From IMG/VR virus record IMGVR_UViG_3300029334_000087: DNA of 7,014 nucleotides; one strand, written 5' to 3'. Positions within the stretch are counted from its first letter, which is position 1. The number at the start of each line of letters is the position of its first letter. This document shows positions 883-7,014 of this stretch, in pieces. A program made the position numbers and the translations under genes. The stretch is from a virus. The notes under the pieces were generated by a model. It ran no database searches. It saw nothing but the letters and a program-made list of their open reading frames with translations, and was not told where the DNA came from.

Positions 883-935
883 TGTTTAACCTTGGCCGAA
901 AGCGATTGTGAGTAGGCCTTTTAATTTTTTTTTTC

Positions 936-2922: not shown

Positions 2923-2954
2923 TTTGTTTATTTGAAATAAAAGTCGTACTTTTG
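2923..2954 (+). promoter_or_regulatory. Bacteroides-type promoter (-33 TTTG / -7 TAnnTTTG) for the orphan ORF
   Basis: TTTG at 2923..2926, a 20-nt spacer, then TACTTTTG at 2947..2954. This matches the published Bacteroides primary-sigma consensus TTTG-N19-21-TAnnTTTG. The ATG lies 42 nt downstream. Confidence 0.6.
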
Positions 2955-2996
2955 TACCATAGAAAAGAGAATAATAACATATTAATATTTACCATT

Positions 2997-3308
2997 ATGA
3001 CAACTTACAAAATTTACAAAAATTACATCTCTGTCTCTTTTGATGACAGTGAATTAATTATTAAGTCAGATTCTGAGTTGAAATTATTCTTTTCATATCT
3101 TTTGTCTGATTATTGTCTTTATTATCTTTCTTTGCCTGTTCCTGTTTGTCAGCATTATTATTATGTATATACGATGATTGAAAAAATACAGGTTCTTTCT
3201 GCTTCTCTTGATCATCAAGTTATTGTTGATATGTTGCGCAATCTTTTTGTTATTGTACATCGTTTTAATTATCCTGAATTTCGTATAATCTTTGTTAATG
3301 AAGTCTAA
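2997..3308 (+). CDS. Orphan hypothetical protein, 103 aa (moron-like cassette gene)
   Basis: The ATG at 2997 is preferred over the track's TTG at 2952, which overlaps the -7 box; the stop is TAA at 3306..3308. Sequence: MTTYKIYKNYISVSFDDSELIIKSDSELKLFFSYLLSDYCLYYLSLPVPVCQHYYYVYTMIEKIQVLSASLDHQVIVDMLRNLFVIVHRFNYPEFRIIFVNEV. I recognise no family. It is bracketed by a promoter and two terminators. G+C is 48/180 by hand count over 3001..3180, clearly lower than in the core genes. Confidence 0.6.
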   Translation: MTTYKIYKNYISVSFDDSELIIKSDSELKLFFSYLLSDYCLYYLSLPVPVCQHYYYVYTMIEKIQVLSASLDHQVIVDMLRNLFVIVHRFNYPEFRIIFVNEV

Positions 3309-3333
3309 TATACGTTATTATTCTTGTTTTCTT

Positions 3334-3359
3334 AGGCTGGCTTATTGCCAGCCTTTTTT
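3334..3359 (+). terminator. Rho-independent terminator T2, downstream of the orphan ORF
   Basis: AGGCTGGC ttatt GCCAGCCT is a perfect 8-bp stem with a 5-nt loop, followed by a T run to 3359. The stem arms (TTAGGCTGG ... CCAGCCTTTTTT) are identical to those of T1. Confidence 0.85.
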
Positions 3360-3376
3360 ATTGTCGGCCGTTAGGC

Positions 3377-3394
3377 GCAACGATTAGGAATCGC
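3377..3394 (+). repeat. Left copy of a 16/18 direct repeat flanking the GC island
   Basis: gcaaCGATTAGGAAtCGC here against gcatCGATTAGGAAaCGC at 3901..3918. The left copy can also fold as a small hairpin, CGATT-agg-AATCG. Confidence 0.6.
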
Positions 3395-3596
3395 ACGCTA
3401 TCTATACTATCTTTGGTCGCGACTTTTGGAGCGATATAATATACTAGAACTAATATATAAAAACCGACACACCCCGCCAACTCAACATTGGCGGCGGTCG
3501 TTATGGTGGTTTTCCATAGCAATTAGCTAATATTGGTCGAGGTCATCGACCTCGGCCGCTTCGCGTTAGCGAACATGTAGTCACGCAGTGACTTAT

Positions 3597-3643
3597 TGCA
3601 CGCGTGTGCGCGCGCGCGTCTCGTGTGTGCGTACATGCGTGCA
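3597..3643. repeat. Alternating purine-pyrimidine (Z-DNA-prone) tract
   Basis: 3597..3619, tgcacgcgtgtgcgcgcgcgcgt, is 23 nt of strict Y-R alternation. A 2-nt phase break (ct) follows, then 3622..3643, cgtgtgtgcgtacatgcgtgca, gives 22 nt more. The tract contains (GC)5 and (GT)n runs. Confidence 0.75.
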
Positions 3644-3762
3644 GTCAATGCGGCTTTGCCGCCCCAATACCATGAAAAACACCGGCCACCGGGGGCCGCT
3701 TCCCCGGTCGAGGGGGTTTGGGGGGAGCGACTCTCCCCCCATGTAATTGAAATGGTACAACT

Positions 3763-3785
3763 CGACTACATCTTTGATGTAGTCG
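3763..3785 (+). repeat. Perfect 10-bp inverted repeat (hairpin) with a TTT loop
   Basis: CGACTACATC ttt GATGTAGTCG is the longest perfect stem in the window. Confidence 0.85.
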
Positions 3786-3900
3786 CAAGTCTAATTCCTC
3801 AGGAGCCGCCCTCTCTTATAGGACTATCTATATATACTTTTATAAAACAAGGTTTTAGTTTAACTATGTTTATTAGTGTATAAATAAGGGTTTGAACAAC

Positions 3901-3918
3901 GCATCGATTAGGAAACGC
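3901..3918 (+). repeat. Right copy of a 16/18 direct repeat flanking the GC island
   Basis: gcatCGATTAGGAAaCGC lies 524 nt downstream of the left copy. The hairpin potential is weakened by the t-to-a change. Confidence 0.6.
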
Positions 3919-3973
3919 CCCCTAACAAATGTTAAAATAACGCTTAAAATATGGTTTTTTCAAATATTTAGTT

Positions 3974-3981
3974 TATATTTG
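3974..3981 (+). promoter_or_regulatory. Candidate Bacteroides-type -7 box (TATATTTG) for the lipoprotein-Rep-capsid operon
   Basis: It matches TAnnTTTG and ends 28 nt upstream of ATG 4010. There is no clean TTTG at -33, only a T-rich stretch at 3955..3960. It is the only such motif between T2 and the first core-operon gene, apart from 3408..3415. Confidence 0.45.
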
Positions 3982-4009
3982 CAGCGTTCAACTATAATTT
4001 TTATATATT

Positions 4010-4225
4010 ATGACAAAAAAAGAAATTATCAAAGGTGTGTTAACTATCCTTGCAGCTGCTATTGCCGCTGCTCTTAGTTTTTTCTTTGCTTCGTGCTCTA
4101 CTTCTGCTCATATGGAGTTGAAGCATAGTCAGGATAGTTTAATTATTCGTAAGGATGGTACCGCGTCTATGACTAAAATTATGTACCAACCGTCTAACTC
4201 TTTTTTAATCTATTTATCAAAGTAG
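4010..4225 (+). CDS. Small predicted lipoprotein, 71 aa (signal peptide plus lipobox Cys29; mature about 43 aa)
   Basis: MTKKEIIKGVLTILAAAIAAALSFFFAS|CSTSAH... has a basic n-region, a hydrophobic h-region and an A-S-C lipobox-like cleavage site. The TAG stop (4223..4225) is 1 nt from the Rep ATG, which suggests translational coupling. Confidence 0.7.
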   Translation: MTKKEIIKGVLTILAAAIAAALSFFFASCSTSAHMELKHSQDSLIIRKDGTASMTKIMYQPSNSFLIYLSK

Positions 4226-4226
4226 T

Positions 4227-5879
4227 ATGTACGAGGATATTCATTTTACAAATTGTGAACATCCACGATTAATCAGAAATCGTTATAGCGGTGAGTTTTT
4301 ATACGTTTCATGTGGTACGTGTGCTGTTTGTCGTAACCGCAAGTCTGCTATATTACAGCAACGTTTAACTTCTGAAATTGAACAGCATCTCTATAACTTT
4401 TTTTTCACTCTCACGTATGATGATGAATTCTTACCTACTGCACATTTTCACGTTTATCATGATTGTATTGCAGTTCTTGGTGTCAATCGTGTTAAATACA
4501 ATGCTGATAGAACTTATCAATCATACTATGAAGAAGATTTCGATTATGTTTCTGTCCCAATTGAAGAAGTTTCCGACAATGAAATTGATTGGCTTAAACG
4601 TACATCTTCTCATCGTCATGGTATTGTAAATCGTCATGATGTTATTTGTTTTATTAAAAGGTTAAACATTTATTTTCGTCGTAAATATGGAATATTGCAA
4701 AACGCATTTCGTTTCTTCGTTGCTTCCGAATACGGTCCCTCTACCTTTCGTCCGCATTATCATGGTGTACTCAGCACCGACCAGGCACTCGTTGCAAAAA
4801 ATCTGTACGCGGCTATATGTGCGTGTTGGAAAAATGGTTATATTGATTTCTCCGCCATCAACAGCTCCAGTAAGTGTTTGTCGTATATTACGAAATATGT
4901 CTCTAGCGATAGTTGTTATCCGAAAATTTTTGGCACAAAGATTAGCAAACCGTTCGTCCTTTATAGTAGAAGCCCGTCTCTCGGCTTTGTCTTCCCTGGT
5001 TCAACGACGCACAAAAAAATCGTCAATACGATATTACAGCACAGAGGTAATGGACATGATAAAGGCTTTCTCGATTTTGTCTCATGTCTGCCCTTGTATG
5101 TTAAGTCTTCGCTCTTCCCCAAGTGTAGGAAGTTTAGCTCGCAATCTCTTGCAGACTTACATAGAACTTATGCTACGTGCCAGCAACAACATTTCCCATT
5201 GACGTTTTTAACTGTTAACGATGATGTTGCAGAGTGGACTGTTTACCGTTCTGATAGCTTTTTCAAAGATTTGCTTAATAAAAATGATATTAACAATTAT
5301 AGATGTGATTTGTATTCTGATGAAATGATTTCTAAGCGTGTTAATAAACTTGCTAATCTTGTTGGTATATCGCGTGATGATTACGTTGATTGTATTTATA
5401 CGTTGTATGATGCTTGTCAATATAACCAGCTTATAAACGATTATCGTTTGCAAGAACTTTATACCTCGACTCGACCTAATACGGTTAAAAATCTTTGGTC
5501 ATTAAATGCTTCTTTGGTTCAACGTCTTTTTGATGCGTTGCTTATGGGTACTAAATGTCCTGTGTCTGAATACGAGTTCCTCGGTGAGCAATTCCGTAAT
5601 TTTGGTATCGAAATTCTTTTTACTGATTGGGATTATGTTCGTAATCGTTATATTTATTCTTTTAATCTTGAAGCTCTTGACAATTCGCAGTTTTCACTTC
5701 TTGTTTCAGAAATAAATTATATTGCTAAAAATAAACAAGTTGCCCATGATGCAGATAAAACTAAAAAGCTCAATGATAGCATGAATGTGCTTTCTCCCAC
5801 TTTTGATATGAAAGAGTATCTTAAACAAAAGAAACTTGTCAAAAAAGGTTTATTAAATAACATGTATCACTTAATTTAA
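4227..5879 (+). CDS. Rolling-circle replication initiation protein (Microviridae VP4 / phiX174 A-like HUH endonuclease), 550 aa
   Basis: There is an N-terminal Cys cluster (C10, C29-G-T-C32-A-V-C35). RCR motif 1 is FFFTLTYDD (4398..4424). The motif 2 HUH is H177-Y-H179 in RPHYHGVL (4755..4763). Motif 3 has two tyrosines, Y220-ITK-Y224 (4884..4898), as in phiX174 gpA YxxKY. The stop is TAA 5877..5879, 6 nt before the capsid ATG. Confidence 0.93.
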   Translation: MYEDIHFTNCEHPRLIRNRYSGEFLYVSCGTCAVCRNRKSAILQQRLTSEIEQHLYNFFFTLTYDDEFLPTAHFHVYHDCIAVLGVNRVKYNADRTYQSYYEEDFDYVSVPIEEVSDNEIDWLKRTSSHRHGIVNRHDVICFIKRLNIYFRRKYGILQNAFRFFVASEYGPSTFRPHYHGVLSTDQALVAKNLYAAICACWKNGYIDFSAINSSSKCLSYITKYVSSDSCYPKIFGTKISKPFVLYSRSPSLGFVFPGSTTHKKIVNTILQHRGNGHDKGFLDFVSCLPLYVKSSLFPKCRKFSSQSLADLHRTYATCQQQHFPLTFLTVNDDVAEWTVYRSDSFFKDLLNKNDINNYRCDLYSDEMISKRVNKLANLVGISRDDYVDCIYTLYDACQYNQLINDYRLQELYTSTRPNTVKNLWSLNASLVQRLFDALLMGTKCPVSEYEFLGEQFRNFGIEILFTDWDYVRNRYIYSFNLEALDNSQFSLLVSEINYIAKNKQVAHDADKTKKLNDSMNVLSPTFDMKEYLKQKKLVKKGLLNNMYHLI

Positions 5880-5885
5880 TTTTCT

Positions 5886-7014
5886 ATGTCTACAACTTTT
5901 GGTAAAATTCCGCACATTGCAGGAAAAGTTAGACGAAATGGTTTTGACCTTTCGCACAAACAAATGTTTACAGCCCCTTTAGGTATGCTTTTGCCTATCT
6001 ATTGCGAGGAAGTCGTACCCTCTGACCATTTTAAGATTTCGGTTCAGTCTCTCACTCGTACTTTGCCTCTAAATACGGCTGCCTTTGCCCGTGTTTCTGA
6101 GCATTTCGATTTCTTTTTTGTTCCATATCGTCGTCTTTATTCTGAGTTTGACGATTTTGTTATTGGAAACAATGAGAATGTCAATTTCTTTCGTTCTCTT
6201 GCCTTTGGAACCGCTGGTGAAGATGGTAAAGTAGTCTTATCTGCTCCACAGCTCAAAAACTCTGCTGGCGTTAACGTTTCAACTAAATCTGGTCAACGTC
6301 CATTGCTTTTTTCCTTACGTTATCTTGCTCAACAAGTTGTTTCTAGTCTTTATGCTAATCAAGAACATATAGAAGATGGTTCTTTCTTTGCTTCTTTTTC
6401 TGATGAACTCGGTTATCCTTTGCAGTTTGGAGCTCGTCGTTTACTCGACCTTTTAGGTTATGGTAATTATCATACCCCTCGTGGTGGTGGTGCTCCATCT
6501 TTTTATGGTACCCCTGATGTTGCAGAAGTTACTTCTACAGATAATCTTGTTAATCTTTTCGCTCTTCAAGCTTATCAAAAGATATACCAGGATTTTTATC
6601 GTAATACATATTGGCAAGCTGAAGATTTTAGCTTGTCCACCTCTAAATGGTATGATTATCTTACACGTACCTATACTAACGAGAGTTTACCTAATGATGT
6701 ATTAAAAGGTGATGTTGTTCCCTGGCTTCGTAAGTTGTTGACTATTCGTTATGCTGACTATAAAAAAGACATGCTTATGAGTATTAAACCTATGCAGCAG
6801 CTCGGCGATTTGACATTAATCTATAATGATACTGCCAATACTCGCAATATTGCTACTTATGACAATAGTGTCGATATGCAGTATAACTCCGAAAGTCCGC
6901 ATAATGGTGATATTTCCGATACTTTTACGAGTATTAATAATGGTTTATTTACTTCGCGCGCTATTGAAACTGCTTCCTCTGTAGGTCAGAGTAACCCAAG
7001 TAGTATTTATCTTT
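5886..7014 (+). CDS. Major capsid protein (Microviridae VP1/F family), N-terminal part, open at window end; full gene 5886..6911+1..882 = 635 aa
   Basis: I translated by hand from ATG 5886 and found no stop to 7014: MSTTFGKIPHIAGKVRRNGFDLSHKQMFTAPLGMLLPIYCEEVVPSDHFKISVQSLTRTLPLNTAAFARVSEHFDFFFVPYRRLY... and later LVNLFALQAYQKIYQDFYRNTYW. NGFDLS, the PxD motif, FFVPxR and AYQxIYxDxYR are hallmark Microviridae capsid motifs. It is absent from the ORF track only because it has no in-window stop. Confidence 0.93.
   Translation, partial: MSTTFGKIPHIAGKVRRNGFDLSHKQMFTAPLGMLLPIYCEEVVPSDHFKISVQSLTRTLPLNTAAFARVSEHFDFFFVPYRRLYSEFDDFVIGNNENVNFFRSLAFGTAGEDGKVVLSAPQLKNSAGVNVSTKSGQRPLLFSLRYLAQQVVSSLYANQEHIEDGSFFASFSDELGYPLQFGARRLLDLLGYGNYHTPRGGGAPSFYGTPDVAEVTSTDNLVNLFALQAYQKIYQDFYRNTYWQAEDFSLSTSKWYDYLTRTYTNESLPNDVLKGDVVPWLRKLLTIRYADYKKDMLMSIKPMQQLGDLTLIYNDTANTRNIATYDNSVDMQYNSESPHNGDISDTFTSINNGLFTSRAIETASSVGQSNPSSIYL
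6912..7014. repeat. Terminal redundancy (copy 2) of a circular genome assembly
   Basis: Exact copy of 1..103. The repeat lies inside the capsid reading frame and preserves it, as expected for circularisation overlap rather than a biological repeat. Confidence 0.97.

Follow-up and report, generated by a model that had tools for sequence, protein, structure and literature searches.

The stretch of DNA analysed here is the IMG/VR virus record IMGVR_UViG_3300029334_000087 (7,014 nt, referred to as the window), which represents a circular microvirus genome of 6911 nt with a terminal overlap (position 1 = 6912). Our subject is a GC-rich, hairpin-dense island at about 3466-3815, located in a non-coding gap that in full covers positions 3360-4009. 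All genes of the virus are on the + strand, and the genes and control elements around the island are the following.

5886 through the junction to 882, + strand: capsid protein gene, with a match to Pfam Phage_F.
936-1322, + strand: open reading frame (ORF).
1319-2875, + strand: VP2-like gene.
2878-2905, + strand: intrinsic terminator T1, 3' of the VP2-like gene, with a hairpin at 2880-2900 (9-bp stem, then a T-run); member of repeat family D1, 86% identical to T2.
2952-3308, + strand: ORF.
3332-3359, + strand: intrinsic terminator T2, 3' of the ORF at 2952-3308 and at the upstream edge of the non-coding gap, with a hairpin at 3334-3354 (8-bp stem with 6 GC pairs, then TTTTTT).
3376-3400, + strand: direct repeat copy 1, CGCAACGATTAGGAATCGCACGCTA; member of repeat family D3, 84% identical to copy 2 at 3900-3924, with a spacing of 524 nt.
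3900-3937, + strand: direct repeat copy 2 (3900-3924), followed by ATGTTAAAA (3929-3937).
3974-3981, + strand: Bacteroidota-type -7 promoter box, TATATTTG, 28 nt 5' of the first ORF.
4010-4225, + strand: lipoprotein-like ORF of 71 amino acids (aa) (...FFFASCS...).
4227-5879, + strand: Rep gene, with a match to PF23343.

A first reading of the letters alone, without database searches (the sequence-only reading), had placed the island between T2 and the promoter, and this agrees with the terminators at 2880-2900 and 3334-3354 and the -7 box at 3974-3981. Relatives carry L numbers, and further ones beyond the GenBank phages were fetched from public assemblies with the conserved lipoprotein-like ORF as the query; a search for related loci with Rep alone gave no relatives. 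By eye, a TAnnTTTG box, which we take to be the Bacteroides promoter consensus, was found at the equivalent place before the first gene in L001, L002, L003, L009, L011, L016 and L023, and a GC-rich element was seen at a comparable position before the promoter in L002, L016, L023 and L024. The host of the window virus was assigned solely from the promoter motifs and a prophage relative.

The G+C content of 3466-3815 is 56.9%, as compared to 36.6% in the rest of the genome, and any other 350-nt segment of the genome reaches at most 48.6%. The hand count of 129 G or C among the 200 positions of 3541-3740 in the sequence-only reading was exact. At least nine stem-loops had been proposed, and simple enumeration together with folding identified at least 11 hairpins at 3460-3785. 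The structured region begins earlier than the proposed limits of 3466-3815 imply, at about 3412, with the element called Module C below. The segment 3440-3830 was folded and compared with 100 dinucleotide shuffles, on both strands and with both RNA and DNA parameters. With RNA parameters, the folding energy was -173.7 kcal/mol for the + strand (z = -9.0) and -162.7 for the - strand (z = -5.8), and with DNA parameters it was -92.3 (z = -9.1) and -83.6 (z = -5.9), respectively. None of the 100 shuffles was as stable as the native sequence in any of the four runs. The structure of the island is thus real, and it is stronger on the + strand.

An identical island with identical flanks was recovered in L020 (Logan SRR5056833) and L021 (ENA ERZ28636758), which are independent assemblies, and a chimeric assembly join, which the sequence-only reading had named as a possible artefact, is therefore excluded. 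In L021, an ENA scaffold of the same virus, a run of N at 822-832 coincides exactly with the segment from hairpin A2 to Module B, so the hairpin block is evidently hard to assemble or sequence. This difficulty may be a reason why such islands are under-represented in contig collections.

The island is composed of several modules, the boundaries of which are approximate. Module A consists of two parts, 3534-3575 and 3650-3741, between which Module B is located.

3412-3515, + strand: Module C, a long imperfect hairpin (about 3460-3513; apical stem 3472-3480 with 3488-3497) with a 5' leader, from the DNA fold; 74% identical to L009 2105-2224.
3534-3558, + strand: Module A hairpin A1, TGGTCGAGGTC-ATC-GACCTCGGCCG; 10 pairs, 98.6% of cells paired in seven sequences.
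3562-3575, + strand: Module A hairpin A2, TTCGC-GTTA-GCGAA, with an invariant stem.
3579-3593, + strand: small hairpin AGTCAC-GCA-GTGACT, in the window genome only.
3595-3645, + strand: Module B, a 24-bp hairpin of alternating purines and pyrimidines, (CG/TG)n, with 6 G.T wobbles and a TCT loop.
3650-3662, + strand: Module A hairpin A4, GCGGC-TTT-GCCGC.
3670-3684, + strand: predicted single-stranded motif CCATGAAAAACACCG between hairpins A4 and A6.
3677-3719, + strand: Module A long imperfect hairpin A6, AAACACCGGCCACCGGGG / CCCCGGTCGAGGGGGTTT, with an inner 8-bp hairpin at 3688-3708; 14 pairs, 100% paired.
3719-3741, + strand: Module A hairpin A7, TGGGGGGAG-CGACT-CTCCCCCCA; 8 pairs.
3746-3830, + strand: tail, with a 10-bp hairpin at 3763-3785 (TTT loop) and the motif GGTACAACTCG (3754-3764).

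Many of the loops are 3 nt long or closed by G..A, as in GCGAAGC in lineage 2 (defined below) and in C-GCA-G and GTTA in the window; loops of this type are stable in DNA. The tail as a block gave no BLAST match beyond the same virus. The motif GGTACAACTCG recurs 3' of GC-rich modules in islands of three lineages (window 3754-3764; L010 1781-1791; L023 3947-3957 and 4115-4125; L024 about 6401-6411).

The relatives fall into lineages that have little in common apart from the island. Lineage 1 comprises the window and L009, the capsid and Rep proteins of which are 83% (aa) and 61% identical to those of the window. Lineage 2 comprises L001-L003, L010, L011, L014-L016 and L022, in which Rep is only about 25% identical to that of the window, and no tblastn match was obtained between the window capsid and lineage 2. 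Common to lineages 1 and 2 are only the lipoprotein-like ORF, a 30-nt piece 3' of the capsid gene and parts of the island. Module A of the window is 78-94% identical to its counterparts in lineage-2 genomes. In the window, Module B lies within Module A and replaces the middle segment seen in lineage 2; in lineage 2 itself, it is found downstream of Module A at a distance of about 100-330 nt. Module C is common only to the window and its closest relative, L009. Modules A and B are missing from L009, which at the same position carries Module D; L016, a lineage-2 genome, has an island that matches Module D with 93% identity. Still other GC-rich modules were identified in L011, L015, L023 and L024, and Module A is absent from L011 and L015. 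In a BLAST comparison with GenBank phages, Module A was matched only by three pig-faeces microviruses (about 89% identity over part of the island), which have no other nucleotide similarity to the window across the genome, and Module B by a tortoise microvirus. Parts of the island are thus more conserved than any protein of the viruses that carry them, yet they vary among close relatives. Judged from these comparisons, the island is a mosaic, its cassettes having been exchanged among microviruses that are not otherwise related. It is not unlike anything in microviruses, for islands homologous or analogous to it occur commonly in those of the gut.

Rearranged modules were also observed. At about 4062-4100, L023 carries an internally deleted Module A, in which the 5' half of A1 (GGCTGAGGTCATCGAC) runs straight into the 3' end of A7 (TTTCCCCCCATATCAGC). 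Tandem duplications are present in other islands, with two 37-nt units in L009 (about 2010-2100; CCGTATGCCGYGAYGGYCTTTAGRCCYGARCGGTAGG) and two 36-nt units in L011 (about 1717-1795; CTAACCGAGCMAGGCCCGCGCCTTTGGAGCGGAATA), which suggests that the modules grow through local duplication.

Selection on the pairing was analysed in alignment A2, which contains seven Module A sequences and for which RNAalifold predicted a consensus of 46 pairs in six helices. In this alignment, 97.5% of the cells are paired, and five pairs have changes on both sides, as compared to 1.3 in column shuffles (0 of 500 shuffles reached five) and 0-1 in slid controls. Individual helices illustrate the pattern. One pair in A1 covaries (C-G, U-A, U.G), A6 shows a compensatory change from CCGGGG/CCCCGG to CCGCGG/CCGCGG, and one pair in A7 is changed from A-U to G-C in L010. 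A2 is lengthened to 9 bp in relatives, with covariation of GCC/GGC and GAC/GTC between L002 and L003, and has the loop GAA (GCGAAGC) in lineage 2; the counterpart of A4 in L002 and L003 is GCGGCC-CATA-GGCCGC. In Module C, the apical stem CCCCGCCAA/TTGGCGGCGG has become CCCCACTAA/TTAGTGGTGG in L009, corresponding to two compensatory double changes. These substitution patterns indicate that the pairing is kept by selection.

The same comparisons are informative about the strand. Read on the + strand, Module B-type hairpins at 13 loci contain 306 Watson-Crick, 77 G.T and 4 C.A pairs. A scan of IMG/VR with a hairpin pattern recovered the Module B type in at least 12 AT-rich contigs of microvirus size, representing about seven independent groups, and in 12 of 12 such contigs the strand of the pattern was the coding strand. 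By a loose ORF test, the hairpin lies outside ORFs of at least 100 aa on the coding strand in 10 of the 12 contigs. In the contigs that were inspected (L031, L038, L040, L045, L051 and L059), it is part of a region with multiple hairpins, with a G+C content 4-8 points above that of the genome. Tortoise microvirus 22 also carries a Module B-type hairpin. All module matches between genomes found by BLAST are co-oriented. The wobble asymmetry and the constant orientation together argue that the functional entity is the + strand.

All seven Module A copies have the segment ATGAAAAACACCG unchanged, and six of them contain the complete 15-mer CCATGAAAAACACCG, the exception being L001, with an A at the second base. 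The 15-mer, flanked by hairpins, was also identified in nine contigs of a third group of microviruses (L040, L041, L049, L050, L071, L072, L134, L158 and L181), six of which were recovered via Module B and not via the motif. In this group, the hairpin P1 at the place of A4 occurs as GCGAC/GTCGC, GCGGC/GCCGC and GCGC/GCGC, and the hairpin P2 as GTCC/GGAC, GTCT/AGAC and GCCC/GGGC, both of them covarying. The scan of IMG/VR with the 15-mer alone gave mostly chance matches at gene starts, the informative matches being those to microvirus-size contigs of one group. On the - strand, the core motif reads as a hairpin followed by GTGTTTTTCATGG. No antisense target of the core motif was found elsewhere in the window genome.

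Several conventional identities of the island were examined. ARAGORN identified no genes, in agreement with the absence of recognisable tRNA and tmRNA in the sequence-only reading. A search with the Rfam 15 covariance models at E<=10, covering the window and nine related loci, gave no real match; for Module B, only sub-threshold look-alikes of miRNA hairpins were obtained, the best of which scored 36.5 bits against a gathering score of 81.

A protein-coding island was rejected. The 95-aa ORF that spans part of it belongs to no protein family, its start falls inside Module B, which is placed elsewhere in relatives, substitutions are distributed over the codon phases without bias (7/5/5), and changes in the stems are compensatory. 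A mini-ORF (MKNT...) starting at the ATG of the core motif was also rejected, as in-frame stops interrupt it in L001-type genomes and in L181. A protein search with the translated island retrieved nothing but spurious ORFs called on this DNA element itself. GenBank records annotate such ORFs in the island as "similar to hypothetical protein" in L001 (MG945666, 1202-2014) and L003 (MG945828, 1519-1788), and protein databases likewise hold translations of the island (P0057, P0058).

The suggestion that the island is an attachment site was not upheld. Microvirus prophages of Bacteroidetes (Alpavirinae type) integrate at dif-like sites of about 28 bp (PMC3091885), and the L015 prophage is flanked by a duplicated dif-like (XerC/D-type) core, ATAATCACGAwwATGTTAAATA. 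In L015, this junction core is placed 3' of the promoter and 5' of the first ORF, not within the GC-rich island, and the same holds for the dif-like core of the episomal relative L011. No dif-like motif was found in 3466-3815 of the window, the only candidate being the half-site-like ATGTTAAAA at 3929-3937, which resembles the XerD-arm half-site of the core in L015. This sequence directly follows the second of the two 25-nt direct repeats that bracket the whole island. The repeat core, CGATTAGGAAWCGC, occurs twice in the window as compared to 0.07 times expected, and the repeat was found in none of the relatives and is specific to the window genome. The direct repeat and ATGTTAAAA could be a trace of how the block of cassettes was gained.

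Captured foreign DNA was another suggestion, of which horizontal exchange between unrelated microviruses was supported, but not an origin in a host genome or plasmid, since no copy was found there. Among 185,579 species genomes, only a metagenome-assembled genome (MAG) of the Gemmatimonadales matched a gapped Module A pattern; this one match was attributed to chance without being read. A plasmid database gave no match. Exact and gapped Module A patterns gave matches in IMG/VR and JGI metagenomes, but without surrounding homology. Diverged copies would escape these genome and metagenome scans, for which exact patterns were used.

The distribution of the modules argues against two functions tied to viral proteins. 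A nick site for Rep, that is, a plus-strand origin, was rejected because Module A is common to genomes in which Rep is about 25% identical and absent where Rep is 61% identical, and a packaging signal for the capsid was rejected because the distribution is decoupled from the capsid. Dispersed palindromic repeats, such as repetitive extragenic palindromes (REP), miniature inverted-repeat transposable elements (MITE) or organellar GC clusters, were rejected as a class for the island, which is found at a single locus per genome and for which the above scans of species genomes and plasmids gave no convincing copy.

We tentatively interpret the modules as exchangeable, host-specific + strand elements acting as single-stranded DNA (ssDNA), most likely as a complementary-strand (single-strand) origin, and we assign this reading a probability of roughly 45%. 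Such an origin had been proposed from the sequence alone. The comparative evidence supports it through the wobbles, the constant orientation, the decoupling from viral proteins and the position after a terminator in several lineages, and the many loops of 3 nt or of the G..A-closed type are a further point in its favour. The structure, its conservation, strandedness, orientation and position and the horizontal sharing are shown; that the molecule is ssDNA rather than RNA, that its function is priming and which host enzyme takes part are inferred. The modules would act on the + strand, which is what the virion contains, what enters the cell and what rolling-circle replication yields late. The very stable GC-rich hairpins would stay folded on an entering circle coated with single-stranded DNA-binding protein (SSB) and, together with the unpaired CCATGAAAAACACCG, would present a landmark for a host enzyme, which may be RNA polymerase, the DnaG primase or the PriA primosome. 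The recruited enzyme would make the primer for minus-strand synthesis, and different genomes would use alternative cassettes (A, D and others). Since its recognition would depend on a host factor and be independent of the viral Rep and capsid, such an element could be swapped among unrelated microviruses of the same Bacteroidota host. In the same way, the decoupling from Rep and capsid that argues against a Rep nick site or packaging signal argues for a site for a host factor. The island is located 3' of an intrinsic terminator and 5' of a promoter in the window, L009, the L040 group and L158, and a function that is independent of transcription would therefore fit all contexts.

Known systems provide precedents for such an arrangement. 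Plasmid single-strand origins (sso) are host-specific exchangeable cassettes, and one replicon family may carry different sso types. To our knowledge, no sso has been characterised in Bacteroidota. Single-strand origins are orientation-specific, consist of multiple stem-loops, are active only as ssDNA and are recognised by RNA polymerase or primase from the host, and related sso are found in otherwise unrelated elements, such as ICEBs1 and pBAA1 (PMC4595007). The island resembles ssoA, ssoT, ssoU and ssoW of rolling-circle plasmids and integrative and conjugative elements, which are non-coding, 150-300 nt long, built of multiple stem-loops and orientation-specific: it is itself non-coding, pairs on the + strand and is orientation-specific, the latter by comparison only. 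It differs from them in having no sequence similarity, in being larger (350-870 nt) and in combining several modules. Of the ssoA elements recombination site B (RSB) and conserved sequence 6 (CS-6, TAGCGT/A), the only counterpart was TAGCGA in the A2 loop of the window, which is attributed to chance and is not conserved (lineage 2 has GCGAAGC), RSB having been considered without a formal search.

The intergenic region of the Ff phages (M13, f1 and fd) comprises about 500 nt with five + strand hairpins that have functions in cis, including a minus origin primed by RNA polymerase. As in the window, it belongs to an ssDNA phage, lies between a terminator and the next promoter and forms its hairpins on the + strand. 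Unlike the island, it belongs to another virus family, with no homology, and also holds the packaging signal and the plus origin, both of which the decoupling from Rep and capsid argues against in the island. Closer in taxonomy are the complementary-strand origin of G4, with hairpins recognised by DnaG, and the primosome assembly site of phiX174; both are from Microviridae, serve the same replication step and have + strand hairpins beside an unpaired initiation site. Hairpins around a conserved unpaired motif are the design of known ssDNA origins (the G4 origin and the Ff minus origin). The known complementary-strand origins of Microviridae have one to three hairpins, a total length of about 55-140 nt and an ordinary base composition, whereas the island has at least 11 hairpins and a G+C content about 20 points above that of the genome, and is modular and exchanged between lineages. 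The earlier statement that its size and structural density exceed those of known microviral origin hairpins is fair. Full-text literature searches gave no account of such islands in Microviridae; nearest to them are conserved intergenic hairpins of other microviruses, which have been read as putative minus origins (PMC9865509, section 3.8). By analogy, the island most likely works like an sso or the Ff intergenic region, yet its sequence does not place it in any origin type described so far.

A number of points weigh against an origin acting as ssDNA. The covariation is based on seven sequences from about three independent clades, and the pattern for the IMG/VR scan was written with G.T on one strand, so that only its coincidence with the coding strand is informative. 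A + sense RNA has the sequence of the virion strand, and strandedness and wobbles thus do not separate ssDNA from mRNA-sense RNA; a bias from C-to-T deamination in ssDNA genomes could also be a partial cause of the excess of G.T pairs. No terminator separates the island from the Rep stop codon in lineage 2, so it is probably transcribed there. No module is universal, with A and B missing from L009 and A from L011 and L015, and several interchangeable types of origin would therefore be needed. Finally, a length of 350-870 nt far exceeds that of any characterised microviral origin. A more specific version of the origin reading, which we consider unlikely in its entirety, is a system of origin cassettes in gut Bacteroidota microviruses, consisting of at least Modules A, B and D and a wider family of hairpin-CCATGAAAAACACCG-hairpin elements and moving between unrelated lineages, in which priming would be of the RNA polymerase type and the A-run (on the minus strand a hairpin and a U-run) would set the 3' end of the primer.

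The first alternative is a structured + sense RNA, which we hold to be somewhat unlikely. The modules would then be either elements in the 3' untranslated region or between cistrons that stabilise the transcript or direct its processing, with Module B as an RNase III-type site, or phage non-coding RNAs (ncRNAs), such as sponges for host factors or anti-defence RNAs, exchanged among phages that infect one host. The lineage-2 island comes directly after the Rep stop codon and the terminator only after Module B and a mini-ORF, long G.U-rich hairpins are typical of RNA, and the RNA-parameter fold of the + strand has z = -9.0. Presence or absence in close relatives combined with sharing across lineages is the pattern of accessory or arms-race loci, and GC-rich islands in AT-rich genomes are a classic signature of ncRNA. 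Against this, the Rfam search of the window and nine loci at E<=10 found no family, nor were tRNA or tmRNA identified, and strong intrinsic terminators precede the island in the window, L009, the L040 group and L158. There is also no conserved promoter ahead of the island, the sequence TATCTTTG at 3408 not being kept in L009, and the loops of mostly 3 nt are unusual for functional RNA hairpins. Of the structured ncRNA or long leader considered in the sequence-only reading, the lineage-2 arrangement thus speaks in favour, while the missing Rfam match and the location of the window island between terminators and promoter speak against. The mosaic composition, the tandem duplications in L009 (two 37-nt units) and L011 (two 36-nt units), the internally deleted Module A in L023, the presence or absence between close relatives and the 25-nt direct repeats flanking the window island would also suit selfish GC-rich palindromic elements, similar to mitochondrial GC clusters, repetitive hairpin-forming elements, REP or MITE, that would be spread when co-infecting microviruses recombine and would be tolerated because this gap is the one place where insertions do no harm. 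GC clusters of this kind are known from yeast, and like the islands they are intergenic GC-rich palindromes in an AT-rich compact genome, mosaic in structure and present or absent among relatives. Hairpin elements of the organellar kind have also been described in sponges (PMC2800124). The organellar clusters differ from the islands in being dispersed in many copies and both orientations, whereas there is one island per genome, at one position and in one orientation, with no dispersed copies in the window. No convincing copy was found in the plasmids or in the 185,579 species genomes, the latter in one exact-pattern scan. The compensatory changes in the stems and the conserved unpaired motif of 15 nt would not be expected of selfish DNA, and 5-12% of extra DNA should be costly in a T=1 capsid. 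We therefore regard such elements as improbable.

An even smaller probability is given to the possibility that the core makes or ends a minus-sense RNA, in which the inner hairpin of A6 and GUGUUUUUCAUGG would serve as an intrinsic terminator on the - strand, either for an antisense transcript of the replicative form or for a primer made by RNA polymerase; the latter would be a special case of the complementary-strand origin. A terminator-like site was indeed called on the - strand at 3698-3683, with the tail GTGTTTTTCA, and in 14 of 16 homologues from two families the T-run is immediately adjacent to a short GC hairpin. In several homologues, the pairs form wobbles when read on the - strand and are mismatched on the + strand. 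However, the search for homologues was biased, with G.T allowed only in the - strand reading, the hairpins are only 4-7 bp long, and the energy advantage of the - strand beside the A-run is small and varies with the length of the segment. Moreover, no TAnnTTTG promoter was found on the - strand anywhere near the island.

The lipoprotein-like ORF is the sole gene common to the window and the unrelated lineage that carries Modules A and B. Its product is 67-80% identical (aa) to those of lineage 2 and has 56 homologues, and no Pfam family was found for it. Of 70-74 aa in length, with the sequence MxKKxIxxGVLTILAAAIAAALSFFFASCS..., the ORF was observed at 4010-4225 in the window, 2904-3128 in L001, 2340-2564 in L002 and 10001-10276 in L015. 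It is presumably a host-interaction gene that travels with the modules, and it may encode a lysis, spanin-like or exclusion lipoprotein that moves horizontally with them.

Two further conserved sequences were observed. The shared non-coding stretch of 30 nt just 3' of the capsid stop codon (TTGGCCGAAAGCGATTGTGAGTAGGCCTTTT...) is 86-93% identical between the lineages (window 893-922; L014 516-545; L010 5409-5442) and is probably a terminator. In lineage 2, a hydrophobic mini-ORF of about 35 aa, M..LL.LVCMFFxMKFIxKCILxxLxYIKDWMDRY, is located 3' of Module B (L001 1902-2014; L010 1953-2058; L011 about 2004-2109; L014 about 3946-4051; L015 about 15870-15989) and is followed by a terminator (GTGTAGCGCTGCAC and a T-run); this mini-ORF is absent from the window.

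In L015, an ENA scaffold of 91.5 kb, positions 9113-16586 contain a complete lineage-2 microvirus that is integrated between an LplA-like gene and a gene of the TetR family. This prophage provides a direct link to a host for the lineage that carries Modules A and B.

In the gut of humans and animals, microviruses of Bacteroidota rank among the most abundant phages, and 5-12% of such tiny genomes is at present unannotated or mis-annotated as "hypothetical protein", as in MG945666 and MG945828. The comparison yields testable conserved elements in cis with coordinates, a core motif of 15 nt and natural variants in which the cassettes are swapped, deleted or replaced by alternatives. If the modules are RNAs, they would constitute a new family of phage ncRNAs. 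If they are origins, they would be horizontally moving determinants of host range and useful parts for ssDNA vectors in Bacteroides and Prevotella.

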